Shown: piece after piece, positions 18,636 to 52,460 of the stretch
Layout of the letters: the number at the start of each line of letters is the position of its first letter
Position numbering within the stretch: position 1 is the stretch's first letter
Source: an uncultured bacterium
GTDB taxonomy: Bacteria > Auribacterota > JAFGBW01
NCBI GenBank assembly: GCA_964443875.1
Contig: CAYUET010000002.1
Coordinates: 70,082 to 134,081 of the forward strand
DNA: 64,000 nucleotides
Direction: 5' to 3'
Notes under the pieces: generated by a model
The model's input: only the letters and a program-made list of their open reading frames with translations
Databases searched by the model: none
Told to the model about the DNA's origin: nothing
Program-made: the position numbers and the translations under genes

Positions 18636-18642
18636 GATGGAT

Positions 18643-19644
18643 TTACCATTGCCAGAGAGGCATGATTTGATTCTCACTGATGTTGAAAAGGGAGTAAAGG
18701 CCTGGAATTTTACACAGCATCAGGACAATAAAGAGAATGAGACAGAACAGTGTGAAAAAAACAAAATTACGTTCCCTGTAGAGTTTCTCCGGTGCCTGAA
18801 CCGGGCTGTCCGTTTTAAAGCCCAGATAGAGGTAGTAGGTGAGAAATCCTGAGAGGAAAGGAAGCATGAGAATGAGTTCCAGGTGGTAGCGCACCATGAA
18901 AATGCCGGCAAAAAGGCTTCCGGTGACAGCATAGAAGAAGACACTGAAAAGAAGCCGTTCAGGGGTGTAGTGCCGAAAGGATTTTCGGTAGGCTCCGGCT
19001 TTTCCTTCCTGTTTGATTTCCCGAAGTTCCGCAAAGCGCTTGAGGGCCATAAAAAAGGCCCCGTACATCCAGTAGGCGATGAAAAGGGATACCGGAGGAA
19101 AACGGTCCGGAATCAGAATAAACCAGCCCATCACGAGACGGATGGGGTTGTTTATGGATTCGGAAAGGACATCCAGGTAAGGGATTTCCTTGGTGCGGAA
19201 AGGGGAAATATTGTAGAACATTCCCATGATCCACAGGGAGACTGCGGCCCAGCCAAAGGGAATATTGATAGAGAAGGAGAGGCTTATGCCCACACAGGCA
19301 AGAAAGATCCATTCGGCATAACCCAGGGGAATATTGATCAGACCGGAGGGTACGGGTCTGAATTTTTTTTTGGGATGATAAAGGTCAAAGGGGGCATCCA
19401 GGATTTCATTAATCACATAGTTGCTTGAAGCCACAAGGCAGATGGCTGAAACGGAGAGCAGAAGTTTTAAGGGCGAAATGACTGAAAAATCCGGAATCAG
19501 AAAAAAAGCCAGAATAATGCCCAGCCCCATGAAAACGTTTTTAAACCAGTGATCCGGTCTTGCGATATCCACATAGGGCCCGAATTTTCCGAGTGTTTTA
19601 TAGCGGGGAATGGAGGATTTTTCACTTCCATCAATGGTTTTCAT
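18643..19644 (-). CDS. UbiA-family polyprenyl-phosphate 5-phosphoribosyltransferase (DPPR-synthase type)
   Basis: 333 aa with 8-9 TM helices. NEILDAPFDLYHPKKKFRPVPSG matches the NDxxDxxxD...HPxKRFRPIAAG signature of mycobacterial Rv3806c-type decaprenyl-phosphate phosphoribosyltransferases. A second Asp-rich region is present. Confidence 0.75.
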   Translation of the reverse strand: MKTIDGSEKSSIPRYKTLGKFGPYVDIARPDHWFKNVFMGLGIILAFFLIPDFSVISPLKLLLSVSAICLVASSNYVINEILDAPFDLYHPKKKFRPVPSGLINIPLGYAEWIFLACVGISLSFSINIPFGWAAVSLWIMGMFYNISPFRTKEIPYLDVLSESINNPIRLVMGWFILIPDRFPPVSLFIAYWMYGAFFMALKRFAELREIKQEGKAGAYRKSFRHYTPERLLFSVFFYAVTGSLFAGIFMVRYHLELILMLPFLSGFLTYYLYLGFKTDSPVQAPEKLYRERNFVFFTLFCLILFIVLMLCKIPGLYSLFNISENQIMPLWQW

Positions 19645-19809
19645 GATAAGCCCCGGACCTTTCTAAAAAGGATGTTTCCTTGAAGTATAAAAATGTTGTT
19701 TATCAACACTTTTTTCAGATACGTCAATAAAATTATATGCTGGAATTCGCTTTACAAAAAGTTCTGTTTGAAGGAATCTTAAAAACTAATTTTTAAGGAA
19801 TTTAAATAA
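19645..19809. promoter_or_regulatory. AT-rich divergent promoter region between the ubiA-GT-C operon and the GT-C paralog
   Basis: The spacer is 165 bp with no ORF and contains TGTTG-N5-CAACA. The downstream ATG has an AAGGAA RBS. Confidence 0.4.
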
Positions 19810-22800
19810 ATGTTTTTGTTCAAACGGAGCCTTTTCTGGACCTCAGCAGCAATTCTTGTCTTTGTTTTTACACGGCTGTTTTTCATCTCTCTTCCCTCCT
19901 ATGCGGTCACTTATTTTGATGAGGCGATCACCGGGCTTATGGGGATGCATCTTTTAAGGGGTGAGTTTCCCGTATTTTACTGGGGTTGTCCCTATCTAGG
20001 GCCTCTGGAGGCCCTGTTTGCAGCTCTTTTTTTTCTTATCACCGGAGAAGCCTCCACTTTTGCCTTAAGGCTTTCCCCACTCCTGGCCTACCTGATCTAT
20101 GGAGGAGCCCTTTTAGCCCAGGCAAGACTCACCATGAAAAAGGAAGTCTTTTATTTCTGTTTTCTGTTTCTGATTTTTCCGCCTTATTATCTTCTTCATT
20201 TTTCTCTGACCGCCATCGGGGATTACATGAATACGGTCATGCTTGGAAGTTTAATGATACTTCTGACCTCTATCATGATTACGGATGAAAAACGGCTGAA
20301 TTTACGGAATGTTTTTCTTCTGGGGCTTCTTTCGGGTTTTTCCTTCTGGACTTTTATTCAGACTGCGCCTGTGATTCTGGCCTGCCATTTGATTCTGTTT
20401 CTCCGGATGCGTTTCAGCTATCCGGGAATCCCTCTGCTTCTTTCCTTTCTGGGATTTGTTCTGGGGAGTCTTCCCTTCTGGATGTGGAACTGGAATAACG
20501 ATTTTTTAACCTTTACCATGAAAGTCACGGGGGCTGACCCGGGAAGTTTTCCGGGTCATGCCCGTAATTATTATGAGGTGTTAAAACTACTTCTGGGTAA
20601 CTATTCCCTTCAGCCCCAGGGATACAGGACTTTTACCGCAGGCCTTGCCGCTTTTTTTCTGATCGCGGTTCCCTGTCTTCTTTTTTCCGGACAGGGTCTT
20701 TTTGCGAGACTTAAGAAACCTGATCCTCTTCTCCTTTTGATTGTTGCTTTTACCGGAAACTCTCTGGCTTATATTGTAAGCTCGCATGGAGATCTTAAAC
20801 TCCCGCGTTATCTTCTTCCTCTTTATTCCTCGCTTCCTGTTCTTCTGCCTTTTGCCTTATCTTTTCTGCTTAAAGGGCGTTATTTTTTTGTTTTTTCAAC
20901 AGGGCTTCTTCTTTTGATGAGCCTTCCTGAAAATATCCGCTTTACGAAAAGTAATCTCGATCCTGCCTATATCAATCGTTTCACGCCCAGAAGAGCGGAA
21001 TTAAATGAGTTTTTTGATTATCTGGGACAGAATAATATCCGGCATCTTTATGGGGCCTACTGTTTTACTCAGATATTGACTTTTGAGTCCAAAAAATCGG
21101 TGACTGCTGCGGATTATTCGGGTTTCAGAAATATGAGTTACCTGCGGGAGGCGGACAATGACCCTCGCACCGGGCTTGCCGCAGAGGATCTTCTGGGGGC
21201 TCCGGACAGTGATTCCCTGGAATCCACAATCAAGCTTTTGACGAGGAAATATCAGAAGAAAAAATGCGGCCGTTTTACTGTTTTTCATGATTTTAAAATT
21301 AATGACGCCTCTGATGCCCCTTTGCCCTCCGGCAGCATTCAGAGTATTTCGGTATGTGAACAGCAGGAACGGAAAAATTTACTGAATGACAGGATTTTTG
21401 AAACCTTCTGGGAAACGCAAAAGCCCATGACCGGCAAAGAGTGGATAACTTTGACTTTTGTGAAACCGGTGAGGGTGACGCGGCTTCTTCTGATTCCGGG
21501 GACGGATTATCTTGCCTTTCCAAGAGGGCTTCGCATGGAAGGAACGGATGTCCGCGGGCACAGGATCAAGCTTGCAGAGGCGAAATCCATTTGCGGATCT
21601 TTCAAGGTTTTTCATGGAAAGCCAAGGCTTTTTGGGAAAGGGGAAATTGAGATCCGTCTGGACAAAGAAACAGAGCTTTCTTCTGTCACACTTTTTCAGA
21701 CCGGGGAGGATCGCTTTTTTCATTGGAAAATAGGGGAGATTATCCCTTTTGAACAGAAACAGGAAAATTCTCTTTTAATCAGCTCTGTGCCTGAAATTCC
21801 GGAGGACAGATTTCTTGTTACAACCCCGGAGCTATATCTCAAACATTATTATAAAACTTTCCATGATCAGCAAACCATTCCTCTTTATCCGCCCATGCTG
21901 ACTTATCTGCACTGGTCAAGGGTATGGGACTATGACACTCCCAAAAGGTATTTGAATATGGATTCTGATCTTTTGTTTATTTTGCCGCCTGATCATTGGG
22001 AGTATTTTAAAAATTATCTTCAGTCCCATGAAATAGCCTATAGTCTGAAGGAAACGCACAACCTCGTTACTGTGCAAACACAGTCCTGCGGGATTCCGAA
22101 AGATCGAAAATACATCCCTTTGCTGCCCCGGACAAAATGGGCAGAGACTTTTAATCAAAATCCGGTATTTGAAGCTTTTTTTCCTGAGCCTGTCTTGCTT
22201 TATGGTTTTAAACTGGCAAAACCGCCATGTGGATTTCAGTGGAAAGATCTGATGATTGAGATTCTGGATTCGGGCGGAGAATGGAAGTCTGTTGCTTTTA
22301 AAACTCATGAGGCCTATTGGACGGATGAAGTGATTCTGGAATCCTGCCGTGAGGGCTCAGAGGTACATTTTGAAAAACCGGTTCCTGCTCAAAAAGTTCG
22401 GTTTATTCTTCATGGCCTTTACAAAACACCTCAGGATCTTGAGGATTTCTGCAAATCAGAGATTATTGGGGATTTTAAATCCGGGAAGGACGAGTATCTG
22501 GTAAAAAAGACTGAGGCTTCGGGTTCTGTGGCAATTTTTGAAGAAACCCTTTCTCTGGATGATTTTTCTCTTAATCCTTCAAACCCTCATCCGGGCGGGT
22601 ATCTTGAGGTTCATGCCCGTTTTTCATGGCTTAAAAAGAAGAGAAAGAATATGGCTTCTACTTTTTTCCTTCATGCCCTGGACTCCACAGGGTATAAAGT
22701 TTTTCAGCTGGACAGAGATCTGGATTTTGGTAGAAACCCTCAGGATTTAAAAAAACCTTTTGAGAGGAAATATTTTATAAAAATCCCTGAATCCATTAAG

Positions 22801-22950
22801 GAGAAGTCTTTAAGGGTGATTATCGGGCTTTATGATCAGCGAACGGGTAAGCGTTCCAAGCCCTCTTCTTCTCATCCTGTCGACATGAGGTCTGTTGAGC
22901 TGGGGGAGATTTTTATTGCCCCTGATGTTCACAGACCAGAAGATCAGTGA
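19810..22950 (+). CDS. GT-C family glycosyltransferase, ArnT/PMT-like, paralog of 15534..18635
   Basis: 1,046 aa. YFDEAITGLMGMHLLRGEFPVFYWGCPYLGPLE aligns residue by residue with the paralog. Homology continues through the C-terminal domain (FESKKSV...YSGFRNMSYLRE versus FESKKKI...FGGFRNIEFLK). Confidence 0.75.
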   Translation: MFLFKRSLFWTSAAILVFVFTRLFFISLPSYAVTYFDEAITGLMGMHLLRGEFPVFYWGCPYLGPLEALFAALFFLITGEASTFALRLSPLLAYLIYGGALLAQARLTMKKEVFYFCFLFLIFPPYYLLHFSLTAIGDYMNTVMLGSLMILLTSIMITDEKRLNLRNVFLLGLLSGFSFWTFIQTAPVILACHLILFLRMRFSYPGIPLLLSFLGFVLGSLPFWMWNWNNDFLTFTMKVTGADPGSFPGHARNYYEVLKLLLGNYSLQPQGYRTFTAGLAAFFLIAVPCLLFSGQGLFARLKKPDPLLLLIVAFTGNSLAYIVSSHGDLKLPRYLLPLYSSLPVLLPFALSFLLKGRYFFVFSTGLLLLMSLPENIRFTKSNLDPAYINRFTPRRAELNEFFDYLGQNNIRHLYGAYCFTQILTFESKKSVTAADYSGFRNMSYLREADNDPRTGLAAEDLLGAPDSDSLESTIKLLTRKYQKKKCGRFTVFHDFKINDASDAPLPSGSIQSISVCEQQERKNLLNDRIFETFWETQKPMTGKEWITLTFVKPVRVTRLLLIPGTDYLAFPRGLRMEGTDVRGHRIKLAEAKSICGSFKVFHGKPRLFGKGEIEIRLDKETELSSVTLFQTGEDRFFHWKIGEIIPFEQKQENSLLISSVPEIPEDRFLVTTPELYLKHYYKTFHDQQTIPLYPPMLTYLHWSRVWDYDTPKRYLNMDSDLLFILPPDHWEYFKNYLQSHEIAYSLKETHNLVTVQTQSCGIPKDRKYIPLLPRTKWAETFNQNPVFEAFFPEPVLLYGFKLAKPPCGFQWKDLMIEILDSGGEWKSVAFKTHEAYWTDEVILESCREGSEVHFEKPVPAQKVRFILHGLYKTPQDLEDFCKSEIIGDFKSGKDEYLVKKTEASGSVAIFEETLSLDDFSLNPSNPHPGGYLEVHARFSWLKKKRKNMASTFFLHALDSTGYKVFQLDRDLDFGRNPQDLKKPFERKYFIKIPESIKEKSLRVIIGLYDQRTGKRSKPSSSHPVDMRSVELGEIFIAPDVHRPEDQ

Positions 22951-40820: not shown

Positions 40821-42020
40821 ATGTCGGAGAACATATTTTCAGATCGAATCGTGGATGTTCCCAGGTCTTTTATCCGGGAAATTCTTAAGGTCACCCTTGA
40901 TAAAAATGTTATTTCATTTGCCGGAGGCCTGCCCAATCGTGATCTTTTTCCGGTTGCAGAGCTTAAAGAAGCGACTCAGCAGGTGTTTGATATTTACGGC
41001 TGTGATATTTTTCAATACAGCAACTCCGAAGGTCATCAAAAGCTCCGGGAATACATTTCCGCACGCTACCGGCAAAAGAAAAATCTGAACATTCCGGTGG
41101 ATAATATTCTCATAACGAGCGGTTCCCAGCAGGGACTGGATCTTCTGGGAAAGGTGCTTTTAAACGACAGGGACGGCCTCGTGATTGAAGAACCCGGATA
41201 CCTCGGAGCTATTCAGTCTTTTTCACTTTATAAGCCCCGTTTTCTGCCGGTCAGGATCACTGAAACAGGCATGGATACAGAGAAATTAAGAGAAGTCATT
41301 GTTTCTGAAAAACCGAAACTGATGTATACCGTCCCCACCTTTCAGAATCCTTCAGGAATTTCCTATACGCCTGATAACCGCCGTGAAGTCGCTAAAATCA
41401 TTGAGCGGAGTCAGACCCTGCTGATTGAGGATGACGCCTACGGTGAATTGCGGTTCTCAGGGGAGAGCAAAGAGTCTTTTAAGGACCTGCTTCCTGAACA
41501 GTGCGTGCTTTTAGGATCTTTTTCAAAAATTGTAATTCCGGGATTCAGAATCGGGTGGGTTGTGGCTTCAGATTCCATCATGGATAAGCTGATCGTTGCC
41601 AAGCAGGCGGCGGATCTGCATACGAGCCATTTTACCCAGAGTATCCTGTATCAGTATCTGAACGATAATGATGTGGACAAGCACATCCGTCTTATCCGCG
41701 AGGCCTATGGGAAGCAATGTCAGGCGATGCTTGACGGGATGGAGGAGTATTTTCCAAAAGAGATGAAATTTACACGGCCCGAGGGAGGAATGTTTTCCTG
41801 GGCTGAACTGCCCGAGGGGCTTAATTCTCTCGATCTTTTTGAGCTGGCGGTGAAGGATAATGTTATTTTTGTTCCGGGAGATCCTTTTTATGTGGGAAAG
41901 AAAAAAACTCGCACCATGAGGCTTAATTTTTCCTGCGTTGATGAAGCCACAATTCTTGTGGGGATTCAAAGGCTGGGCAAGGCTATTCAGAAATTGATGG
42001 ATAAAAGAGTATCTGTCTAA
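40821..42020 (+). CDS. PLP-dependent aminotransferase, class I/II
   Basis: 399 aa. SFSKIVIPGFRIGWVVAS carries the PLP lysine motif. The RBS is AAGGAG. Confidence 0.8.
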   Translation: MSENIFSDRIVDVPRSFIREILKVTLDKNVISFAGGLPNRDLFPVAELKEATQQVFDIYGCDIFQYSNSEGHQKLREYISARYRQKKNLNIPVDNILITSGSQQGLDLLGKVLLNDRDGLVIEEPGYLGAIQSFSLYKPRFLPVRITETGMDTEKLREVIVSEKPKLMYTVPTFQNPSGISYTPDNRREVAKIIERSQTLLIEDDAYGELRFSGESKESFKDLLPEQCVLLGSFSKIVIPGFRIGWVVASDSIMDKLIVAKQAADLHTSHFTQSILYQYLNDNDVDKHIRLIREAYGKQCQAMLDGMEEYFPKEMKFTRPEGGMFSWAELPEGLNSLDLFELAVKDNVIFVPGDPFYVGKKKTRTMRLNFSCVDEATILVGIQRLGKAIQKLMDKRVSV

Positions 42021-42027
42021 TCCCTAT

Positions 42028-42149
42028 GGGTTTAATTCCCTGGAGTTTACTGCGGATTGTCATTTCGGGCGTTGGTGAGAAATCCAGATTCCTCACATTT
42101 GTTCGGAATGAGATTTGATACTCCGCAGCCTGCGAGAGGGTTGTTCATT
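42028..42149. repeat. Structured intergenic repeat element, copy A
   Basis: It has conserved termini (GGGTTTAATTCC...ACTGCGGaTTGTCATT and ...CGCAGCcTGCGaGaGGGTTGTTCATT). These flank a nested hairpin core (GTCATTTCGgG...TTCGGAATGA and GTGAG-N12-CTCAC). Confidence 0.7.
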
Positions 42150-42170
42150 CTTCTTTGAAGACAGAAAATT

Positions 42171-42638
42171 TCAGGCTTTGTTTTTTTTTATTTGCTTGAG
42201 AATGGCCTGGATCAGAGTGTCCAGGCTTTGAAGAAAGGCGGAGCGGTCTTTTTTTTCAAAGGGCGCGGGGCCTGAAGTCATATCCCCGATGCTTCGCAGG
42301 TAGGTGGAAAGATCCCGGGCGGCCAGGGCGCTTCCTATGGATTCCGGAGTGTAAATACGGCCCTTGGAGTTGAGAACTCTTGCCCCTTTTTTAATGGAGC
42401 GGGAGGCAAGCGGGATGTCGGTTGTGATGACGATGTCGGTATCTGTGACCTTTTCAACAATCCAGTCGTCGGCCGCATCCATGTTTCCGGGGACGACGAC
42501 CATTTCAAACAGGTCTTCCCGGGGTATCCGCATGGGAGCGTTGGCCACGAGATACACCCTGATCTTATAGCGCAGAGCCACACGATACACCTCTTCTTTG
42601 ACAGGACAGGCATCCGCATCCACATAGAGGGTAATCAT
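42171..42638 (-). CDS. YaiI/YqxD family protein (UPF0178, DUF188)
   Basis: 155 aa. MITLYVDADACPVKEEV is the N-terminus typical of the UPF0178 family. Confidence 0.75.
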   Translation of the reverse strand: MITLYVDADACPVKEEVYRVALRYKIRVYLVANAPMRIPREDLFEMVVVPGNMDAADDWIVEKVTDTDIVITTDIPLASRSIKKGARVLNSKGRIYTPESIGSALAARDLSTYLRSIGDMTSGPAPFEKKDRSAFLQSLDTLIQAILKQIKKNKA

Positions 42639-42691
42639 TTTAAAAACCTTTCCTATAAAGAAATTGTAAAATTTCTGATTTTAATTTCATT

Positions 42692-42813
42692 GGAATTAAT
42701 TCCCGGAAGCTTACTGCGGCTTGTCATTTCGAGCGTTAGCGAGAAATCCAGATTCCTCACGTTTGTTCGGAATGACTTTAGATACCTCACAGCTTGCTGC
42801 GGGGTGTTTCATT
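42692..42813. repeat. Structured intergenic repeat element, copy B
   Basis: It is about 85% identical to copy A through the core (GTCATTTCGAGCGTTAGCGAGAAATCCAGATTCCTCACGTTTGTTCGGAATGAC) and has the same termini (CAGCTTGCTGCGGGGTGTTTCATT). Confidence 0.7.
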
Positions 42814-42941
42814 TTTTATTTTCATGTTCCTTGAGCAGTTAACCATATTTTAAGTTTAAAAACAAATCAAAGCTTGATTTGAATTTGTTTTTGATTAACA
42901 TCAACTGTTAAATGACGGTCAATAACAACAGAGGAGGCGTT

Positions 42942-43544
42942 ATGAGAAATGGATTGAAAATACTTTTTTGGGGAATGATTGTGGCCATTTTTAGCGGCGT
43001 GGTTCTCAATGCAGAAGAGATTACGAATGACACCCTGAAAACAATCTTCAGCCGTAAAAGTGTCCGTTCTTATAAAAATGAAGTGGTCACCCGGGATCAG
43101 TTAAGTCTGCTCGTCAAGGCTGCTATGGCTGCTCCAACGGCTGTGGACAAGCGTCCCTGGGAATTCATTGTCATCACGGACAGGAAAGTGTTGGAGGAAT
43201 TGAGCGAAGTTCTGCCGTATGCCAAAATGGTGACAGAGGCAGGCTCGGCGGTGATTATTTTAGGGGATACGGAAAAACAGTTCGGCGGAACAAACAGCAA
43301 TTTCTGGGTGATGGATTGCAGCGCCGCTACGGAGAACTTTCTTTTGGCTGCTGAATCCATGGGGCTTGGCGCTGTATGGACAGCCATTTATCCGGATCAG
43401 TTGAGAGTCAGTAAGGTACGGGAGGCACTTAAGATTCCCGACCGTTACATCCCCTTGAATCTGATTCCCGTGGGCATTCCCACAGGGGAGGATAAACCTA
43501 AAGACAAATATAATGCCGCTCAGATCCACTGGGAGAAATGGTAG
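42942..43544 (+). CDS. Nitroreductase-family flavoprotein with an N-terminal signal or anchor
   Basis: FSRKSVRSYKNEVVTRDQLSLLVKAAMAAPTAVDKRPWEFIVI is the nitroreductase motif. The ATG at 42942 follows an AGGAGG RBS that lies inside the longer listed ORF. Confidence 0.8.
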   Translation: MRNGLKILFWGMIVAIFSGVVLNAEEITNDTLKTIFSRKSVRSYKNEVVTRDQLSLLVKAAMAAPTAVDKRPWEFIVITDRKVLEELSEVLPYAKMVTEAGSAVIILGDTEKQFGGTNSNFWVMDCSAATENFLLAAESMGLGAVWTAIYPDQLRVSKVREALKIPDRYIPLNLIPVGIPTGEDKPKDKYNAAQIHWEKW

Positions 43545-43612
43545 ATATTTACGATATAAAAAAAGCCGGATACGGGAGCTCCCTGTATCCGGCTTTTTTT
43601 AATTTGAAGTTT

Positions 43613-46351
43613 CTATTTTTTAATCAGGTCAATTTCAATATTCAGAGGTTCGGCAAATTGATCCAGTACCTCTTTTTCAATAAAGGGAATATCCTGTTCC
43701 AGCTTAAAGGCAAGGTCTTTATTCTGACAGCGGAGTTTTCCGATTTTATACTGTCCATAGGAAAGCTTTTCAGGATTTTTATAGGTTACGATGATTTTTT
43801 TGCCCTGGAAAAGTGTCTGGACGCTGATTTCGCAGCTTTCATCAAACTGTTTTGCAAGCAGTTTCGGATTGAAGCTTAAATGGCCCATGATGCCGCGGAT
43901 GCCGAAAACCTCCAGGAGCATGGTCATGACAGTCCAGGCGGCAGAGCCTGTGATGTAGCAGTAACGCGCGCGGCCTTCGCCGTTGAAATATTCCGGAACG
44001 CAGGGGAAGAAAAGGCTTTTTTCAGTATTCTTCCACATTTTATAGATGGAGTGGAGGACCTCAAAACCCTCTTTTACAAGGCCTCTGCGGTAAAGTCCGT
44101 TGGCGAACATGACGTTCATGTGGCTGAAGAAGCTTCCGTTTTCCTTGTCTCCGTAATTGAAGGAAAAGGCGCGTCCCATGTTGAGCATCATTTTTCCGAA
44201 GTTGGTATTGAGCCTGAAGCCCTGGTGCTCCTTGTCTCTCAAAAGATCGCCTGCGGCCTTGAAGGCCTTTTTACACTGGGATTCAGTAGCCACGCCGGAC
44301 ATGATGGGGAAGACCTGACCGGTGAGGGTCATCTGTTCTTCATTATTAATCATTCCTTCAAGGCGCATTCCGTCGTTGTTGTAATAGCCGTTGAAATATT
44401 CGTGTTTTCCGGTAGAGATGAACTCATTGTCACGGATCTGTTTTTTGAGGGCCTCTGAATAGGTGTTCAGAATTTCAGAAAGTTCATTCAGATTAAAAGA
44501 AACCTGTTCCCCATTAATTCTTCCTTCTTCTACCTTAATGAAATAAGCCTGAAGCACAGCCTGCAGTTTTACGGGGTCGTTTAAAAAGACAGCGGGGATT
44601 CCGGGCTTGACCAGGGAGAGCATTTCCGAGGGAAGGGAAAGGGCGGGGATGTCTTTTTCCGCAAGAATGCCGCAGTAACGGGCCAGGGTTGCGAGGTTGG
44701 CTGCAAAGGCTGCGGAAAAGGGAACGGATTCGCCTTTGGCATGAGCCATGTCCAGACCGTCATTCCAGTCCGCATCTTCAAGCCGGAGATTTCCGTGTTC
44801 TCCGCGGTTGAAGAACTGGGTGAGGTTCTGAAGAAGCAGGTGGATAAAAATTTCACTTTTAACGACTTCATTATTTTTATTTTTAAGCCAGGTTCCGTCT
44901 TCTTTTTTCCAGTCCGGGTTGATTTTTTTGCTCCGGTGTGAAAAACGGTCCTGGAAAAAGGGTCTTTTTTCCAGAAGAATGGAATAATCGCCTGTCTGCT
45001 GAACATAGAGATCAATGGTCACTGTCGGCCATACGCCGTGATCCATCCAGGTCCTGGGAATGTTATTGCGGTCGGCAATGAATTCTCCGGGTTTAAGCCC
45101 GATAATGGTTGCATTGGAGCCGTCGATCCTGACTCCCTGAATGTTGTTCAAAAGGATGTCTCGTGTATCGGAAGGGTTGGTTAAAAGGATGCCCAGACAG
45201 TCCTGCCACAGGTCTCTCCAGCCTCTTCCTCCGCGGCCATAGCCGAAATCCGGAAGAAAGGAACAGCCGAAGATGCGGCGCATGACGGGCTGCAGGGAAA
45301 CCCAGACAAGCCAGTTGTTGAAGGCGGGATCTCCGGTCATGAAGACGAGCCGCTCAACCTGGTTTTTCCACCAGACCCTGGTTTCCTCAAAAACAGACAT
45401 GACCTTCCGGTCGGAATTGTAGCGTTCCAGAAGAGGCATCCAGTTCTCTTCCCGGTTATGAATTCCAAGAAGGATTGCAAATTGCCGGGATTCTCCGGGA
45501 TTAAGCGTAAAGGATTTGAAGCGCAGGGCCGCGATGCACTGCATGCCGTCTGTGTCTTTGGGATCTTCAAAGGCTTTGTCCGTATAGATCATTTCCGGGG
45601 TTTCCAGACTTCCGCCCTCGCCGATAAAGGCTTCAAGGTCGGAAACAACACCTGCAAGGGTTTCCCCTTCTGAAGAAAAGGCAAAGGCTGAATAATCATT
45701 GGCGCAGGGTTTGTGGCCTCTTTCATCAAAGGACATGGTCGGGCAGAGGATCACGCCGTTGGGGTGTTTTTTATTCCGGTTGAGCATGGTGGTCACCTGA
45801 CGGTGGTCCCTCAAATTATCAGCAGAACGGCCGTATAAAGGAATTGCAGCCGTAGGCAGAAGCGTCAGCGGGGCATCAGAAGTGTTGGTGAGCGTAATCA
45901 GACTGACTTCAAAAGGGTCTCCATTGGAAGGAACAAACATATCGGTTCGGGCTTTTAAGCCTGTTTTTTTATGGGCTCTTTCAGTGGTAAAATACCCCGG
46001 TCCGGCAAAGACATCCGTATTGCAGGCTTTCTGGCTTTTGGCTCTCTGAAAAGCTTCATCGGCACTGACCCCCGGGACAGACCAGATTTCCTTATCGTTG
46101 ATTTTGACCCAGAAATTCCTGGAATTTTTGGTTTGTAGAATGCTTTCGGATACCTGGGGTTCTGTTAAAAAGGAATTCTGGCCGGTTTTGATATCGCCTT
46201 TGAGCTCGGGGGTGACGGCGGACATCATTCCCTGCATATTGAAAAGAGGAAAGTAAAGCCGGTTGATACGGTTTGCATTTTTAACCGTGAATTCGCCTGT
46301 GGGTTTTTTTTCTTTTGCGGTAAAGTCCAGCTGCATTCTTTTTGAGGCCAT
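43613..46351 (-). CDS. GH94-family-like glycoside phosphorylase (cellobiose/cellodextrin/chitobiose phosphorylase-like)
   Basis: 912 aa. GRGGRGWRDLWQD parallels the GxGxGFRDSNQD motif. LRLEDADWNDGLDMA carries the catalytic-Asp DWND motif. ITGSAAW parallels the WLTGSASW motif of the GH94/GH65 six-hairpin fold. Confidence 0.6.
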   Translation of the reverse strand: MASKRMQLDFTAKEKKPTGEFTVKNANRINRLYFPLFNMQGMMSAVTPELKGDIKTGQNSFLTEPQVSESILQTKNSRNFWVKINDKEIWSVPGVSADEAFQRAKSQKACNTDVFAGPGYFTTERAHKKTGLKARTDMFVPSNGDPFEVSLITLTNTSDAPLTLLPTAAIPLYGRSADNLRDHRQVTTMLNRNKKHPNGVILCPTMSFDERGHKPCANDYSAFAFSSEGETLAGVVSDLEAFIGEGGSLETPEMIYTDKAFEDPKDTDGMQCIAALRFKSFTLNPGESRQFAILLGIHNREENWMPLLERYNSDRKVMSVFEETRVWWKNQVERLVFMTGDPAFNNWLVWVSLQPVMRRIFGCSFLPDFGYGRGGRGWRDLWQDCLGILLTNPSDTRDILLNNIQGVRIDGSNATIIGLKPGEFIADRNNIPRTWMDHGVWPTVTIDLYVQQTGDYSILLEKRPFFQDRFSHRSKKINPDWKKEDGTWLKNKNNEVVKSEIFIHLLLQNLTQFFNRGEHGNLRLEDADWNDGLDMAHAKGESVPFSAAFAANLATLARYCGILAEKDIPALSLPSEMLSLVKPGIPAVFLNDPVKLQAVLQAYFIKVEEGRINGEQVSFNLNELSEILNTYSEALKKQIRDNEFISTGKHEYFNGYYNNDGMRLEGMINNEEQMTLTGQVFPIMSGVATESQCKKAFKAAGDLLRDKEHQGFRLNTNFGKMMLNMGRAFSFNYGDKENGSFFSHMNVMFANGLYRRGLVKEGFEVLHSIYKMWKNTEKSLFFPCVPEYFNGEGRARYCYITGSAAWTVMTMLLEVFGIRGIMGHLSFNPKLLAKQFDESCEISVQTLFQGKKIIVTYKNPEKLSYGQYKIGKLRCQNKDLAFKLEQDIPFIEKEVLDQFAEPLNIEIDLIKK

Positions 46352-46406
46352 TATATTCTCCTTTTTATATAAATAGTCCGGATATTTAGGGATTTTTTTG
46401 GCTCAA

Positions 46407-46434
46407 GGTCAAGGCTTTTCCTGACCCTTTTTTT
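46407..46434 (+). terminator. Terminator-like hairpin (GGTCAAGG-cuuuu-CCTGACC followed by CTTTTTTTAT) in the 5' leader of the 46528 gene
   Basis: A GC stem of 7 bp plus a bulge is followed by a run of 7 T on the + strand. It lies 90 nt upstream of the start codon, between divergent genes. Confidence 0.4.
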
Positions 46435-46527
46435 ATCGGTTTTTATCCGGAAGAAAAAGTAACGAGACTCTTCCCACACCTCTCCACTTATGGTATCTTA
46501 TGTTAATTTGAATAAAAGTGGACGATT

Positions 46528-49008
46528 ATGGCCAGACAAATAATTTATATCCTGGTTTTTGCCGTGTCCTGCGGCTTCTGCCTGACGGGAAACTCCGTAT
46601 GGGGACTCAGTCCTCATTCTGTCATGGTTCAGTCTGAAGGCAGTGATTTTCGGGTGAATTATGACGAAGTGATTATCAGCGAGATTTCAAAGCTTGAAGA
46701 GGAATTGAAAAATCTGCCGGATAAGATTCAAAAGACTCCTGAGGATTATAAGGTTAAAATTGTTGAGGGCTTCACCCCTCACGGCAAGGATCTTTTGAAG
46801 CAGATGCTTAAGAGAGGGAAAATCACCCTCCTGGCCGCACCAGAGGGTACTCCGCTTAAAAATCTGGTGGAGGAGGTCGCAGATCCCAGAATGACAACCG
46901 TTTTCCGAATTTCCGACTACTACCTGGATCAGACTGTGAAATACAAGGCAACCCCCAGAGATGTTCACTGGGAGCTTTTGAAAAAAGATATTGCCAAACA
47001 TCTGGTAAAAAAACCTAACAAGAGGATTGTGGTGGAAGGCCCTTTTGCCCTTCAGGATGAGCTTTGGAACTACCTGGCCGGAGAGACGGGAGTTTTTGTT
47101 TTAAAACTTTTTGTCAATTACCCTAAAAAAATCCGAAAGGGGAAACTGGGCATTGCGGATGATAGTAAATCCGTGGAAAAATGGAACCTGATCCGTAAGA
47201 ATGAGCTGAATGATATTTATCCGCAGCTTCCCCATGCTCATTTTGTGGTTAATCTTGCGCCTGCCCAGGAATTTTATCCCTATTCCAACTTAAGGCTTAT
47301 GAATCTGTCAGACAAATCCTTTCATTCCAAAGACCGCTTTGCCAATGCCTTTCTGTCCATTCCTGACAACGGAACAGTGGATATTGTCACGGCCGGGGGG
47401 GGAGGAGATGTTTACGGGGCCATTCTGCAGGCCATGTCCCTGAAGGAAGTGCTTCTTAAGGCCGGTAAAAAAAATATTCGCTTCAGGGTTTTTACCTCGA
47501 ATTTGAAAAGGGGAAGCGAGAATCCCAAGGGCGGTCCGGCAGACATGAAAAAAATTCTCTACCCTGTAAAGGGCAAACTGAAATCGATTCCCCCCTGTAA
47601 AAACAGTCGTCATTTTTATCGTATTTTTGAGGGCATTGAGGTTGTTTCCTCTGTGAGCGATGATGAGAGGCGCGATATAGTTATCGATGGTAAAGAGCTT
47701 ACCACCCGGGTGGCTTTAAGTGACGGGGAAATTGTTGAGAAGGCAAAATCTTTAGGGATAGAAGTGCTTATGGCGGATGCGGCGGTCAGCGGAAAGGATC
47801 TGGCAGAGGATTACGAAGGGATGACATCAAAGGAATCCGTTTTTACCATAATCGGAGATATGGGAGGGGATATTGCGGCCCGTTTTCCTGTTCCCCGGAA
47901 CGGTAAAAATTATCCTGAGAAAGATGTGCGTTCCCCCAATACGGATACCCTGTTTCTGGATATGGCCTATCATTTGAAAAAAATCCAGCTTTCACGCGGC
48001 ATTGAGGATAAAACCTGGGTATCCATTGCCGCCTACGGCGGTGACGGGGAGCTTGGATATACCGGGCTTCAGTATCTGAAGGAAATTATAGGCTCTGAAG
48101 AGCTGCAGGCTGTGTTTTATAATCTGAAATTTCTTACGGCTCACAAATCGATCCTGGACCGTCTGCTTCAGTGGAATATTCACAGCGAGGTTTCCGGAAA
48201 TCTGATCAACAATATCCGGAAATGGATAGAGGAATATAAACCCAATGAATATGAAGAAAAAAGATCCCCCTGGAGCTTTGATCAGGCTTCACAGATCAAA
48301 GGTCCTCAGCAGACCATCCGCAACGGCACAAGAACCGTTGTAATGCCTGTGGAATATGTGAATACGATTTATGTGGCTCCTGAAACCTTAAGAGAGCGCA
48401 TTGACGACCAGATCAGCACTGAAGGAAAAGGGTGGTTTGATATTGACCAGGAACTCCGGTCAAAGTGTGAGCATAATCCCGTGGGAGAGCCCACGGGATT
48501 ATGCACGGAAATGACGGATCCCAACAATATCCGTGACCGTAAAAATGTCAATGTAAGACTTCTGGTGGATCATGTGAGAAAAGTATCCGGCTGCATGACC
48601 TTTAAAGAGGCCGTGCAATGGCTTTTCAGAAAGGGTGTTCTCGGGGGCGGAATCAATGCTTATCAGTTTGAAAAAGGGCTTCTTTTTCTCAAGCTGAGCG
48701 AGGTCTATCCCTCTGAGATTTTAATTCAGAATGAACTGCAGAGCCTGTCTGAAATATTTGTTTTACTGGAAACGCTGAATAAAAAGGAAGTGAATCCTAA
48801 GGAAAGGGAAAGAGTTCAGGCGCTTTATCATTTATTGAGTCAGTACATTCTGTACAAGGTCGGCGGGTTTGAGGAAACAGTCAAAGAGGATTTGAAGCTT
48901 ATGCCTTTTATTGCAGAATACTACCCTGTGCTTTATTTTCTGCTCGCAAACCGTGGTCCTTTGGAGGAACTGAAAATTTCCGGCGAAGCGGTTTCAAAGG
49001 CGGCCTAA
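46528..49008 (+). CDS. Large hypothetical secreted protein (826 aa)
   Basis: It has a signal peptide (MARQIIYILVFAVSCGFCLTGNSVWG) and three Gly-rich acidic loops (TAGGGGDVYG, IGDMGGDIA, AAYGGDGELGY). No family was recognised. Confidence 0.5.
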   Translation: MARQIIYILVFAVSCGFCLTGNSVWGLSPHSVMVQSEGSDFRVNYDEVIISEISKLEEELKNLPDKIQKTPEDYKVKIVEGFTPHGKDLLKQMLKRGKITLLAAPEGTPLKNLVEEVADPRMTTVFRISDYYLDQTVKYKATPRDVHWELLKKDIAKHLVKKPNKRIVVEGPFALQDELWNYLAGETGVFVLKLFVNYPKKIRKGKLGIADDSKSVEKWNLIRKNELNDIYPQLPHAHFVVNLAPAQEFYPYSNLRLMNLSDKSFHSKDRFANAFLSIPDNGTVDIVTAGGGGDVYGAILQAMSLKEVLLKAGKKNIRFRVFTSNLKRGSENPKGGPADMKKILYPVKGKLKSIPPCKNSRHFYRIFEGIEVVSSVSDDERRDIVIDGKELTTRVALSDGEIVEKAKSLGIEVLMADAAVSGKDLAEDYEGMTSKESVFTIIGDMGGDIAARFPVPRNGKNYPEKDVRSPNTDTLFLDMAYHLKKIQLSRGIEDKTWVSIAAYGGDGELGYTGLQYLKEIIGSEELQAVFYNLKFLTAHKSILDRLLQWNIHSEVSGNLINNIRKWIEEYKPNEYEEKRSPWSFDQASQIKGPQQTIRNGTRTVVMPVEYVNTIYVAPETLRERIDDQISTEGKGWFDIDQELRSKCEHNPVGEPTGLCTEMTDPNNIRDRKNVNVRLLVDHVRKVSGCMTFKEAVQWLFRKGVLGGGINAYQFEKGLLFLKLSEVYPSEILIQNELQSLSEIFVLLETLNKKEVNPKERERVQALYHLLSQYILYKVGGFEETVKEDLKLMPFIAEYYPVLYFLLANRGPLEELKISGEAVSKAA

Positions 49009-49032
49009 CCCGCATAAGGTCTTTCTTCGTGA

Positions 49033-49581
49033 TTATTTGATATTTCCTTTGACGAAACTCATGAATTCCTGACGGGTGGCTCTGTCGCGGAAGCAGCCTA
49101 AAATGGAGCTGGTGATCATGGTGGCATTCTGTTTTTCAACCCCGCGCATGGCCGTGCAAAGGTGATAGGCTTCAATCACAACGCCAACTCCCTGCGGATT
49201 CAGGGCTTCTTCAATACACTGGGCGATCTGCTGGGTCAGCCTTTCCTGAACCTGCAGACGGCGCGCATAGGATTCCACAACCCGCATGATTTTGCTTAAA
49301 CCCACGATTTTTCCGTTGGGAATATAGGCCACATGGGCCTTTCCGTGGAAGGGCAAAAGGTGGTGCTCACACAGGGAATAAAGGCCTATGTCTTTTACAA
49401 CCACCATTTCATCATAGTTTTCATGAAAAACAGCGGATTTCAGGATTTGGATCGGGTCTTCCTTGTATCCTTTGGTGAGAAACTGATACGCTTTTTCAAC
49501 GCGTTCAGGAGTTTTTTCAAGCCCTTCACGTTTCGGGTCTTCTCCAATGGCTTTTAATATCTGAACAATGGCATCCTGCAT
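49033..49581 (-). CDS. folE: GTP cyclohydrolase I
   Basis: 182 aa. The motifs [18 protein letters not shown] and [12 protein letters not shown] match the FolE family. Confidence 0.9.
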
Positions 49582-49879
49582 GCTGTTACGCTCCTTCCTG
49601 TGAATTCAACAAAAGTGTATTTAACACAATCCCTGGTTTGCTGGCAATAGAGTAAGGTTTTTTTCTTCGGTTTGTGACAAAATGTCTCATTTTTTGACAG
49701 GGGTATCCGTGTAATAAAAAAAGGTCTGATGAAGGCTTTTTTGTGTAATTTATTTAAAAATATAAAGTTGCAATTATTGCGATGTTTGGCATGCGTTATG
49801 AATTTATAATAAGCATAAATACTAAACACAGCCCTTATAGGGATAATAAAAAACAAATAAACCAAGAAAGGAGTTAACC

Positions 49880-50308
49880 ATGAATGGAACTTATGCTTAC
49901 TACAATCCGTTAAGGGAGCTGCACTATTTCCAGAAACAGCTCAGTGATTTATTTGAGGATTTTAATGAGCGTCGTGGTGAATATCCCCTTGTGAATATCT
50001 GGGGGAATTCTGAAGGTCTTCTGGTCACAGCAGAGCTTCCTGGTCTGGATGTGAAAGACATTCAGCTGACCGCCAAAGGGGATACTCTGACTCTGGAAGT
50101 TGAAAAAAAATCAGAGGTCATTGATTCACAGGGGATCTGTATTCACAGGAATGAAAGGGAAGGTGATCCCTTTATTAAAACAGTGAGGCTTCCCTATGAA
50201 GTAAACGGGGAGAATATTTCCGCAAAATATTCCAATGGTGTTTTAAAGGTAACACTGCCTAGGGCAGAAGCGGGAAAACCGAGAAAAATAACCGTAACAC
50301 AAGAATAA
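49880..50308 (+). CDS. Small heat-shock protein (Hsp20/alpha-crystallin family), 1 of 3
   Basis: It has an alpha-crystallin domain (LVTAELPGLDVKDIQLTAKGDTLTLEV...GVLKVTLPR). The RBS is AAAGGAG. Confidence 0.85.
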   Translation: MNGTYAYYNPLRELHYFQKQLSDLFEDFNERRGEYPLVNIWGNSEGLLVTAELPGLDVKDIQLTAKGDTLTLEVEKKSEVIDSQGICIHRNEREGDPFIKTVRLPYEVNGENISAKYSNGVLKVTLPRAEAGKPRKITVTQE

Positions 50309-50335
50309 TAACCGACAACAAAAAGGAGGCTGCAC

Positions 50336-50731
50336 ATGAATAACGATGCCAACAATAATAAAAAAGAAAATACCCGGCCTGAACTCACACAAGACAAACC
50401 TGTATTCACCCCGCTCACAGATATTTATGAATCAACGGAGTCGATTTATGTGGTTTGTGATGTTCCCGGGGTGCAGGAAAAAAACATTGATATTTCCCTT
50501 GAAAACGATGTGCTGACCATTACCGCCTACCAGGATGAGGAGCAGTACGAAGGGTACCAGGCCCTGTACAAAAGTTATGACAGGGGAATTTTTCAGAGAT
50601 CCTTCACGCTTTCTCAGACCATAGACAAGGCAAAAATCAAGGCCACTGTCAAACAGGGAGTCTTAAAGATTGAGCTTCCCAAGTCCGAAGAGGTGAAGCC
50701 TAAGAAGATATCTGTAGAAATTGAAAAATAA
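50336..50731 (+). CDS. Small heat-shock protein (Hsp20 family), 2 of 3
   Basis: VVCDVPGVQEKNIDISLENDVLTITA...GVLKIELPK. The RBS is AAAGGAGG. Confidence 0.85.
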   Translation: MNNDANNNKKENTRPELTQDKPVFTPLTDIYESTESIYVVCDVPGVQEKNIDISLENDVLTITAYQDEEQYEGYQALYKSYDRGIFQRSFTLSQTIDKAKIKATVKQGVLKIELPKSEEVKPKKISVEIEK

Positions 50732-50760
50732 AAATTCTTAAGAACAAGGAGGTGATTTCC

Positions 50761-51276
50761 ATGTTTAAGAATCTTATCCCATGGAAAAAAGGAAAAATGG
50801 AGGCGGCTCGGAAGAAGGAAGATTCATTTATGAATTTTCATAAACAGATGGATCAAATGTTTAATCAATTTCTGAGAGATTTCGATATGCCTGGTTTTGC
50901 TTTTCCTCCACTCAACAGATTTGAAAAGGGATGGATGAAGGCGCCTGAGGTGGATGTGGATGAAAATGAAAAGGAAATCCGGGTTACTGCCGACCTTCCG
51001 GGGATTGATGAGAAAGATGTGGATGTGTCGCTTGAAGGAAACAGTCTGACCCTCAAAGGGGAGAAGAAGGAGGAGAAGAGTTCAGGCCAATCGAAGGGAC
51101 GCCTGACGGAAAGGCGCTACGGCTCCTTTGAAAGAAGGATAGCAGTACCTTCGGATCAGATAGATCCGGCTAAGATCAGGGCTTCCATGAAAAAGGGAGT
51201 ACTGACTGTTCTTCTTCCCAAAATCAGAGGCAGGCAGGAGAATCAAAAAAAGATAGCGATTCAGACGGAGGATTGA
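50761..51276 (+). CDS. Small heat-shock protein (Hsp20 family), 3 of 3
   Basis: VTADLPGIDEKDVDVSLEGNSLTLKGEKK...GVLTVLLPK. The ATG at 50761 follows an AAGGAGGTGA RBS. The listed ORF from 50752 starts at a GTG inside that RBS. Confidence 0.85.
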   Translation: MFKNLIPWKKGKMEAARKKEDSFMNFHKQMDQMFNQFLRDFDMPGFAFPPLNRFEKGWMKAPEVDVDENEKEIRVTADLPGIDEKDVDVSLEGNSLTLKGEKKEEKSSGQSKGRLTERRYGSFERRIAVPSDQIDPAKIRASMKKGVLTVLLPKIRGRQENQKKIAIQTED

Positions 51277-51350
51277 TAATCTATGCCCTTAATCCGGCCG
51301 GTTTTTTCCGGCCGGGTTTATTTTTTATAAACGTTTAAAAGGAAAGAAAA

Positions 51351-52301
51351 GTGAAATATAAGGACTATTATGAGATACTGGGCATAGGGAAGAATGCTTC
51401 GGCAGACGATATTAAAAAGGCCTACCGCAAGCTTGCAAGAAAATACCATCCGGATGTGAACAAGGCCGCCGGGGCGGAAAATAAATTCAAAGACATCAAT
51501 GAAGCGAATGAAGTGCTGAGTGATCCTGAAAAAAGAAACCGCTATGATCACATGGGCAGTGCCTGGCAGAACGGGCAGGATTTTAACCCGCCGCCGGATT
51601 GGGAGCAGTACGGGTTTGGTAAAAGAAGAAGCGGAAGACAAAGCAATGCGGATTTTGGAAACTTCGGCGGATTCAGTGATTTTTTTGAATCCTTTTTCGG
51701 CGGTGGCGGCTTCGGGCAGGGCATGAGCCAGGAGGATATTTTTTCCGGAAGACACAACCGTCATGCCGCAGGACAGGATCTGGAAGCGGAAGTAAGCATC
51801 ACCCTGGAAGAAGCCTACAAGGGGGTAAATAAGACGCTTTCCTTTGAATCCAGAACCCATGGAGCCCGAAATTTTGATGTTAAAATTCCGGCTGGAATCA
51901 GTGACGGAGCGGTTTTAAGACTTAAAGGACAGGGGGGGGAAGGCCGTGGATCAGGTAAAAAAGGCGACCTGCTTTTAAAAATTCATCTTCAGCCTCATTC
52001 GAAATTCCGCATTAAGGGGTCTGATCTTGAAACGGATCTGGAAGTAAGTCCCTGGGAGGCTCTGCTTGGAACCAAGGTCAGTTTTACACTTCTGGACAAT
52101 CCCATCACCCTTACTATTCCGTCAGGCGCACAGTCAGGAAATCGGCTGCGGCTGAAGGGAAAGGGTATGAAAATGAAGAATAACGAGAGCGGGGATTTGT
52201 ACATTGTCGTTAAAATCATGAATCCCAAATACCCCACGCATGAGGAAAAAAAGTTATTTCAGGAACTGGCGGATATTTCCAAATTCAACCCGAGAGGGTA
52301 G
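51351..52301 (+). CDS. cbpA: Curved-DNA-binding protein (DnaJ homolog without zinc finger)
   Basis: The J domain is [36 protein letters not shown]-rich linker and C-terminal substrate-binding domains follow, with no CxxCxGxG repeats. It uses a GTG start. Confidence 0.8.
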
Positions 52302-52318
52302 AGTTTTTTTATCTCATT

Positions 52319-52460
52319 GGGTTTAATTCCTCGCAGCTTGCTGCGGCTTTGTCATTGCGAGGCTTTGCGAAGCAATCTAGATGAGAGAGATTGCTTCGTC
52401 CCAAAGCGTCCTCGCAATGGCGTATTTGATACCTCGCAGCTTGCTGCGGGGTAGTTCATT
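52319..52460. repeat. Structured intergenic repeat element, copy C (variant core)
   Basis: Its termini match copies A and B (GGGTTTAATTCCTCGCAGCTTGCTGCGGCTTTGTCATT ... ACCTCGCAGCTTGCTGCGGGGTAGTTCATT). The core is a perfect nested double hairpin: CATTGCGAGG/CCTCGCAATG outside and CGAAGCAATCT/AGATTGCTTCG inside. Confidence 0.7.

Follow-up and report, generated by a model that had tools for sequence, protein, structure and literature searches.

Three intergenic repeats in the window

The window, that is, the whole 64,000-nt stretch of DNA analyzed here, holds three copies of an intergenic repeat, all on the + strand and at the places where a first, sequence-only reading had located them: copy A (42022–42149, 128 nt, decayed), copy B (42686–42813, 128 nt), and copy C (52313–52460, 148 nt, intact). 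The end coordinates of that reading were exact and its starts fell 6 nt too far downstream. Its description of the spacers as "gene-distal" was inaccurate: copy A begins 1 nt past the stop codon of an aminotransferase gene, copy C begins 12 nt past the stop codon of a cbpA-like gene, and copy B lies in a divergent spacer, 48 nt upstream of the start codon of yaiI (DUF188). Between copies A and B, identity is 79% across 135 nt, and all three copies have a 5′ and a 3′ box in common, as had been noticed; these ends are all that copy C shares with A and B, its core being different. The window has six occurrences of the box palindrome (CGCAGCTTGCTGCGG, with at most three mismatches) where 0.64 would be expected, a count reached by none of 100 shuffles, and the 12-mer GGGTTTAATTCC taken alone is not above chance in the window. 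One contig of a short-read assembly breaks within copy A, as is expected for a repeat.

Anatomy of the ends and of the core

Within each copy, the two boxes repeat each other in direct orientation (family D2) and are not terminal inverted repeats; repeat searches and folds give each end a subterminal hairpin, the two lying on one strand, and show no terminal inverted repeats. Each end carries a CGCAG-CTTG-CTGCG hairpin, which follows CTCxxx-GGGTTTAATTCC in the general left end and stands between GATAC and GGTAGTTCATT in the general right end. The left end of copy C (52313–52346) reads CTCATT-GGGTTTAATTCC followed by a perfect hairpin, TCGCAG-CTTG-CTGCGG, and its right end (52425–52460) reads TTTGATAC, CTCGCAG-CTTG-CTGCGGGG, and TAGTTCATT. 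Copy A has CCCTAT-GGGTTTAATTCC and a degenerate hairpin on the left (42022–42055) and TTTGATAC, a degenerate hairpin, and TTGTTCATT on the right (42114–42149); copy B has its left end at 42686–42719 and, at 42778–42813, a right end with the hairpin CTCACAG-CTTG-CTGCGGGG and the tail TGTTTCATT. Copy C looks competent, and the other two are mutated relics.

Between the ends lie cores (42058–42112 in copy A, 42722–42776 in copy B, and 52350–52422 in copy C, all on the + strand) that are head-to-head dimers of TGTC-tagged hairpins, in copy B TGTCATTTCGAGCGTTAGCGAGAAATCCAG plus its inverted partner. Their arms bear the TGTC tag, A-T pairs at the first two stem positions, and a CCAG or CTAG tail (fitting ATCYRG). 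As read from the sequence, the core stems of A and B reach 9 bp only when two tandem G-A mismatches are allowed, and in copy C the core arms combine a 5-bp stem with a long loop. Of the nested stems previously described for A and B, the 10-bp outer one holds in B, one G-T pair included, and has a mismatched first pair in A, when the inner GTGAG-N12-CTCAC is exact in A and inexact in B; the stems of copy C, said to be perfect, are long and nearly so.

As single-stranded DNA, copy C folds far better than shuffles (z −8.2) and copy B does not (z −0.2); as RNA, the copies exceed shuffles in stability with z of −3 to −6.6. Folding strength, checked in both orientations, is about equal on the two strands. 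Across taxa, the left-end hairpin shows covariation at two stem pairs, with 15 cells altered on both sides and none of 500 shuffles matching this, and these compensatory changes show that the structure of the left-end hairpin is conserved.

Boundaries, target motif, and empty sites

A copy in Piscirickettsia salmonis interrupts an IS30 gene whose intact form reads ...GGTATCAAT/TTCAAAATG (the slash marking the junction), and the comparison of the filled and intact genes gives the exact ends, a target ending in TCAAT, and no target duplication. The element runs from CTC... to ...TTCATT and is inserted 3′ of TT(N)AAT. All 17 independent left ends are preceded by NAAT and, before it, by a T, with another T one position further in 14 of the 17; the family target rule is TT[T/G/C]AAT directly 5′ of the element. 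In the window, the motif of copy B (42680–42685, TTTAAT) aligns with TTGAAT in the empty site of a relative (L121), and those of copy A (42016–42021, TCTAAT) and copy C (52307–52312, TTTTAT) each differ from TTNAAT by a single letter. The copy A motif takes in the stop codon of the aminotransferase gene (TAA, 42018–42020), which stands at the position of a TAG in the same relative and is host DNA outside the element. The left junction of copy B is ambiguous by a few nucleotides in its AT-rich flank, another cut fitting the empty site slightly better. An element start at TAATC was considered and ruled out, since the P. salmonis/IS30 comparison places NAAT in target DNA; it follows that there are neither 11 unexplained nucleotides to the right of copy A nor duplications around copy B, where apparent ones are chance matches in AT-rich DNA. 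Indeed, no target-site duplication flanks A, B, or C. A search for guide/target base-pairing rules like those of IS608 yielded no convincing pairing scheme.

Related assemblies provide empty sites for all three copies. Two of them (L121 and L122) lack A and B at the orthologous sites, the stop codons of the aminotransferase gene and of yaiI standing 10 nt apart at the site of copy A, and two others (L123 and L124) lack copy C, with homology picking up exactly past TTCATT. This presence/absence between relatives fits insertion and precise excision alike.

The same ends flank a transposase gene in other genomes

The 18-mer of the box hairpin is found at no fewer than 119 loci in many phyla, against a chance estimate of about 17, and 57 of these loci lie in the full 33-nt right-end consensus (at most five mismatches). 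The right end of copy C (33–36 nt) matches those of dozens of other genomes at 94–100% identity, in alignments that end at 52460. Box matches come almost entirely from metagenome-assembled genomes (MAGs) of Desulfobacterota-like bacteria, Nitrospirota, Acidobacteriota, Bacteroidota, Chloroflexota, Patescibacteria, and other groups; isolates with copies annotated as IS200/IS605 and bearing the same ends include P. salmonis (plasmids) and Kovacikia minuta. A scan of viral contigs with the 18-mer returned a single chance match in coding sequence.

In about a dozen loci, the left end is followed by an ORF of ~148 aa and by a right end directly after its stop codon (pairs of ends flanking Y1_Tnp/NF033573 genes include L025, L033, L040, L089, L073, L150, and L151), full-length members measuring about 520–560 nt. 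The product is a Pfam Y1_Tnp protein (E 6e-36) that scores 132 bits on the NCBIfam IS200/IS605 transposase model (cutoff 55) and 23 bits, below the cutoff of 80, on the RAYT (REP-associated tyrosine transposase) model NF047646. It aligns with the solved transposases of ISDra2 and IS608 (E 1e-13 to 1e-17), its HUH motif aligning to the ISDra2 and 2EC2 chains. One Acidobacteriota MAG carries two full-length copies of ~520 nt, 100% identical and on two contigs, a sign of recent activity. In the 64-kb window itself, tblastn finds no tnpA, and each copy consists of the left end, a short core where full-length members have the ~148-aa Y1 (HUH) tnpA, and the right end.

Discussion

Since the same two ends flank tnpA in other genomes, we regard the three repeats as transposase-less derivatives: they are very probably non-autonomous, PATE-like miniature derivatives of IS200-group insertion sequences (IS200/IS605 family). 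Two of the suggestions initially made for them, a MITE-like mobile element and a site for a recombination protein, were therefore right in substance: the boxes form the two ends, left and right, of an IS200-group element, and the copies are missing in relatives. By analogy with IS608 and ISDra2, a TnpA dimer supplied in trans would bind the two top-strand hairpins on a single-stranded lagging-strand template, cut on the 3′ side of both the flanking TT(N)AAT and the terminal TTCATT, and release a single-stranded circle while the donor is resealed; the circle would then be pasted in 3′ of another TT(N)AAT. All three top strands are the G-rich + strand (GC skew is positive throughout the window), which is the orientation expected for targeting of the lagging-strand template, albeit with n = 3 and with a replication direction that is itself inferred. 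Against this reading, we count the degenerate hairpins of copies A and B, the one-letter departures of the copy A and copy C targets, the ambiguous left junction of copy B, a polymorphism that fits excision as well as insertion, and the absence of tnpA from the 64-kb window and of sibling copies from a metagenome scan with the A/B core, as well as the presence of TGTC-hairpin dimers between the ends in unrelated lineages, which the IS200 model does not explain.

As in the IS200 group (tnpA only; models IS608 and ISDra2), the full-length relatives enclose a Y1 HUH transposase between their ends, the subterminal hairpins are direct, insertion occurs 3′ of a short specific motif without target duplication, and the terminal TTCATT of the element resembles its target; the window copies differ in having no transposase. 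A search of the accessible literature, ISfinder aside, turned up neither the ends of this subfamily (GGGTTTAATTCC, CTTG-loop hairpin, GATAC, hairpin, GGTAGTTCATT) nor its TT(N)AAT target, and the hairpin string retrieved only unrelated primer sequences. With PATEs, the gene-less derivatives of IS200/IS605 elements (PMC3119063, PMC10055086), the copies share a short, non-coding body (128–148 nt, no ORF), the retention of both ends of the parent IS, presence/absence among relatives, and a presumed mobilization in trans by TnpA. However, PATEs often encode omega-RNAs for TnpB (Meers et al., PMC10055086), whereas here the parent has no tnpB, no omega-RNA family is matched, and the center is a pair of TGTC-tagged hairpins.

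From a similar perspective, REP/BIME or REPIN elements mobilized by a RAYT are also short, palindrome-rich, intergenic repeats whose associated Y1 HUH enzyme works on single-stranded hairpins, and the core of our copies, an inverted pair of small hairpins, is REPIN-like. Yet REPs carry a GTAG tag and form inverted pairs, and RAYT genes occur as single copies between inverted REPs, when the transposase found here scores as IS200-type and not as RAYT, is multi-copy with ends of its own, and is bounded by direct hairpins without GTAG tag; we thus hold mobilization by a RAYT to be highly improbable. The REP-like character initially proposed applies to the variable core alone, which recalls CGTC-tagged REP dimers, and not to the conserved ends with their direct hairpins and IS200-type transposase. 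Even less credible, to the point of being negligible, is a CRISPR-like mini-array with a repeat-spacer-repeat layout, or a different kind of site for site-specific recombination, for instance an integron attC: two direct repeats of ~36 nt with an internal palindrome, 50–70 nt apart, do evoke one, but across phyla they fall consistently into a left and a right type, the would-be spacer is itself palindromic and kept between A and B, and, to judge from the letters, the ends do not match the R″/R′ cores of attC. The full-length tnpA copies, in which the same repeats flank a transposase gene, refute these readings.

The repeats might also have been a functional RNA or DNA structure of the host in the first place (terminator, mRNA-stabilizing 3′ hairpin, or small RNA), their spread being secondary. 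In favor of this view, A and C lie just downstream of same-strand genes, the RNA folds beat shuffles, and the left-end hairpin of copy C followed by CTTTGTCATT fits a loose terminator pattern; the left-end hairpin of Salmonella IS200 has indeed been reported to stop read-through transcription. But terminator-like sites are no commoner than in shuffles, B occupies a divergent promoter spacer and not a 3′ end, the two strands fold about equally, relatives lack the elements at the same sites, and recognition by the transposase accounts for the sequence conservation, and a primary role as a host structure is very unlikely. Nor did Rfam return a match for the window at gathering thresholds, or for the copies even with E up to 10, and the terminator and RNA-stability roles first envisaged are not upheld. 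The Rfam-search matches at 43523–43640, outside the copies, correspond to a plain terminator. A resemblance of the 5′ box to a tRNA T-arm was dropped once the boxes were found to flank tnpA.

The core deserves separate consideration. The order left end, dimer, right end, with differing dimer sequences, recurs in seven or more unrelated lineages (the window, L005, L035/L119, L064, L095, L098, and Flavobacteriaceae loci), and such TGTC dimers also occur solo elsewhere; a metagenome scan with the 18-mer of the A/B core gave chance matches and two solo dimers only, and no sibling copies. The core is cargo or a later acquisition, which the IS200 model does not require, and one may speculate that it aids a folding that brings both ends together. 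CGTC-tagged REPs, a class reported without dedicated transposase, have a CGTC or TGTC tag, a stem of 8–9 bp with two initial A-T pairs, a loop of 4–5 nt, a CCA tail, and an arrangement in head-to-head dimers (Di Nocera et al. 2013, PMC3733652). The TGTC tag of our cores is listed there as a common variant of CGTC, and the cores agree with this class in their A-T pairs, tail, and dimer arrangement, but tandem G-A mismatches break up their stems, or the loops are long. Hairpins of the CGTC type, in their Neisseria form, are cut by Ssn GIY-YIG single-strand nucleases (PMC11893778), and dimers enclosed within IS200 ends are an arrangement described neither for the CGTC-tagged REPs nor for these NTS/SRM hairpins (PMC3733652, PMC11893778). 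The SRM pattern HGTCWYN(0-2)YYVSBRHN(0-5)WNVSBRGN(0-2)RNCYNB (PMC11893778) has no match on either strand of the window, and a regex, a weak test, found no small GIY-YIG ORF in the window; a small GIY-YIG gene flanked by core-type hairpin arms is present at another locus (L027).

The tie between TGTC dimers and IS200 ends is the sole part that the IS200 reading leaves unexplained. It is conceivable, though we consider it unlikely, that IS200-type ends serve as a vehicle for head-to-head CGTC/TGTC-tagged hairpin dimers. If so, a Y1 transposase could disperse the recognition sites of a second enzyme acting on single-stranded DNA or, alternatively, the dimer could be selected because it brings the ends together, and the recurrent association between IS200 ends and CGTC-like dimers could bear on the spread of this "orphan" REP class. 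As for the repeats themselves, they are ordinary selfish DNA of a common kind and not a new regulatory system. The recognition of their boxes as IS200-type ends explains a repeat that breaks the short-read assemblies of many uncultured lineages, and provides a signature, TT(N)AAT / CTC...GGGTTTAATTCC-hairpin ... GATAC-hairpin-GGTAGTTCATT / (slashes marking the element boundaries), with which insertions may be masked or dated.

Anatomy and Folding of the Window Copies

We read the three repeats of the window as tnpA-less, PATE- or MITE-like derivatives of an insertion sequence (IS) of the IS200 group, built as a left end (LE), a variable core, and a right end (RE). The three copies had been reported by a sequence-only reading, and reading and aligning the sites confirmed them at 42022-42149 (copy A), 42686-42813 (copy B), and 52313-52460 (copy C), all on the + strand, with coordinates revised once the tetranucleotide NAAT had been assigned to the target. 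Copies A and B share 79% identity across 135 nt, and what copy C has in common with them is limited to the two end boxes, its center being longer and different. The box palindrome, with up to three mismatches, occurs six times in the window (0.64 expected). The 5' box (LE) and the 3' box (RE) turned out to repeat each other in direct orientation (family D2 of the repeat finder), a relationship left unstated by that reading, and each contains a CGCAG-CTTG-CTGCG hairpin.

When folded as RNA, as had been proposed as a check, all copies outperformed their shuffles (z from -3.0 to -6.6). When folded as single-stranded DNA, copy C alone exceeded its shuffles (z -8.2), and copy B was no different from them (z -0.2); the hairpins of A and B are mutated. 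For the RE hairpin, folding is somewhat more favorable on the top strand (-8.7 kcal/mol, vs. -7.2 kcal/mol on the other strand), because a T-G pair of the former becomes A-C on the latter. No Rfam family matched the copies, either at gathering thresholds or at E-values up to 10. Weak Rfam microRNA matches were spurious and were produced by a perfect 20-bp hairpin (AAAAAAAGCCGGATACGGGAGCTCCCTGTATCCGGCTTTTTTT) at 43557-43600, located between the convergent genes 42912-43544 (+) and 43613-46351 (-), which is an ordinary bidirectional intrinsic terminator. Elsewhere in the window (15534-22950), two divergent paralogous genes for membrane proteins of ~1046 aa lie on either side of a gene for a 333-aa membrane protein, and a 60-nt inverted repeat (18423-18482 / 19975-20034) is explained by the similarity of the 5' coding parts of these paralogues.

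The Boxes Flank an IS200/IS605 Transposase Gene in Other Genomes

In about a dozen loci of other genomes, the 5' box lies upstream of an open reading frame of ~148 aa and the 3' box directly after its stop codon. This product matches Pfam Y1_Tnp (E 6e-36) and the NCBIfam model NF033573 of IS200/IS605 family transposases (132 bits, cutoff 55), with only 23 bits against the model of REP-associated tyrosine transposases (RAYT; cutoff 80). It also aligns with transposases of known structure, from ISDra2, IS608, and Sulfolobus elements (E 1e-13 to 1e-17); for the ISDra2 and 2EC2 chains, the alignment includes the HUH motif. Cultured carriers are Piscirickettsia salmonis plasmids and the Kovacikia minuta plasmid pA, where the gene is annotated "IS200/IS605 family transposase". 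In one Acidobacteriota MAG, two 100% identical copies of ~520 nt are found on different contigs, and the family has therefore been recently active. No tnpA was detectable in the window, whose copies are versions without this gene.

A scan of one genome per species recovered the 18-mer CCTCGCAGCTTGCTGCGG of the box hairpin at 119 loci at least, when we estimate that ~17 matches would be expected by chance in 596 Gb. Among the matches listed, almost all are in MAGs, from many phyla, and 57 fall within a conserved 33-nt unit, GATAC-CTCGCAGCTTGCTGCGG-GGTAGTTCATT, which is the 3' box; others have a 5'-box context, in which ..GGGTTTAATTCC precedes the hairpin. Many box-hairpin matches (L002-L120) are located ~100 nt or less from the end of a contig, suggesting that repeats of this family are a common cause of breaks in short-read assemblies.

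Shorter forms, in which two hairpins are separated by 74-86 nt, also occur elsewhere, as do single-hairpin forms of ~50 nt (loci L014, L085, L090, and L101) that consist of an LE leader, one hairpin, and an RE tail, with TTNAAT directly 5' of each. These "solo" forms resemble what recombination between the hairpins of the two ends would leave. Sister subfamilies, probably belonging to related IS200-group elements, combine the box hairpin with different leaders, TGAAT|CGGATAGCGAGCGCATTCC-hairpin-GGTTAGCGAGCGAAT and TTTAAT|CGAAAAGAATTCC-hairpin (loci L003, L048, L050, L067, L093, and L113, and L010, L022, L023, L055, and L082 in Bacteroidota).

Element Boundaries, Target, and Empty Sites

On a P. 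salmonis plasmid (NZ_CP039244.1; locus L150, 254-809), a 556-nt copy of the IS200-group element interrupts an IS30-family transposase gene; this nesting is present on three plasmids. The filled site reads ...ATATCAAT|CTCTGAGGG...GGAGTATCATT|TTCAAAATG and an intact, 98.7% identical IS30 copy reads ...GGTATCAAT|TTCAAAATG, which indicates that the element starts with CTC..., ends with ...TCATT, and was inserted 3' of ..TCAAT. The target-site duplication that the sequence-only reading had proposed to look for was not made at this site. The same comparison ruled out NAAT as a part of the LE, and the coordinates of A, B, and C were changed. NAAT is found directly 5' of the element in all 17 independent LEs, preceded by T in 17/17 and by a further T in 14/17, with no conservation upstream, which defines TT[T/G/C]AAT as the target motif. 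At the other end, RE alignments from dozens of loci stop at 52460.

Relatives provide empty sites for the three copies. In L121 and L122, whose DNA is 85-88% identical to the window, both A and B are absent, the stop codons of the aminotransferase and yaiI genes are 10 nt apart, and the position of copy B reads TTGAAT. In L123 and L124, which encode a CbpA-like protein 81% identical to that of the window, copy C is absent and homology restarts exactly after TTCATT. These differences may reflect either insertion or precise excision.

With regard to the ends themselves, an alignment of 22 LEs suggests that the structure of the LE hairpin is under selection. The CTTG loop hardly varies and the adjoining stem pairs do not vary at all; two stem positions covary (C-G/A-U/U-A at one, A-U/G-C/U-A/C-G at the other), with 15 cells changed on both sides, a count equalled by 0 of 500 shuffles; slid registers of the stem gave far lower covariation scores.

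Hairpin Dimers within the Cores

In the cores, two hairpins that read TGTC-AT..stem..AT-C(C/T)AG are paired head to head. This signature is that of CGTC-tagged REPs, a class reported as having no transposase of its own (PMC3733652), and there is also a resemblance to NTS/SRM hairpins, the substrates of Ssn GIY-YIG single-strand nucleases (PMC11893778). The agreement is not exact: the core stems have G-A mismatches in tandem, or long loops, and a search of the window with the published SRM pattern gave 0 matches. Dimers of the core type occur solo in several loci, at least seven unrelated lineages have them enclosed by IS200 ends, and full-length IS copies are without them. In a Deltaproteobacteria MAG (E14; L027, 2064-2468), a small single-domain GIY-YIG gene (Pfam PF01541) is flanked by TGTCATTCTGAGCGCAGCGAAGAATCTG-type hairpins, whose arms are of the type found in the window cores, an arrangement that recalls NTS-ssnA-NTS. 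Another small single-domain gene of this kind (PF01541) is found at L065 (873-1199).

Proposed Mobility and Significance

By analogy with IS608 and ISDra2 (summarized in PMC6006769 and PMC10055086), TnpA acting in trans would bind both top-strand hairpins where the replication fork exposes single-stranded DNA, and would cleave directly downstream of the flanking TT(N)AAT and of the terminal TTCATT, releasing a single-stranded circle that would then be inserted after another TT(N)AAT. The top strand is the + strand in all three window copies and the GC skew of this strand is positive across the window, an orientation matching the one that would be expected from such a mechanism, with n = 3 only.

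As far as sequence can tell, the window repeats appear to display all the defining features of IS200/IS605 derivatives, and no membership in RAYT/REP, SRM, CRISPR, or Rfam families was found for them. A search of the accessible literature gave no description of the ends and target of this IS200 subfamily. PATEs are a well-known kind of element (PMC3119063, PMC10055086), and the added interest of the present family is modest, lying in its nested hairpin dimers and in its breadth across uncultured phyla.
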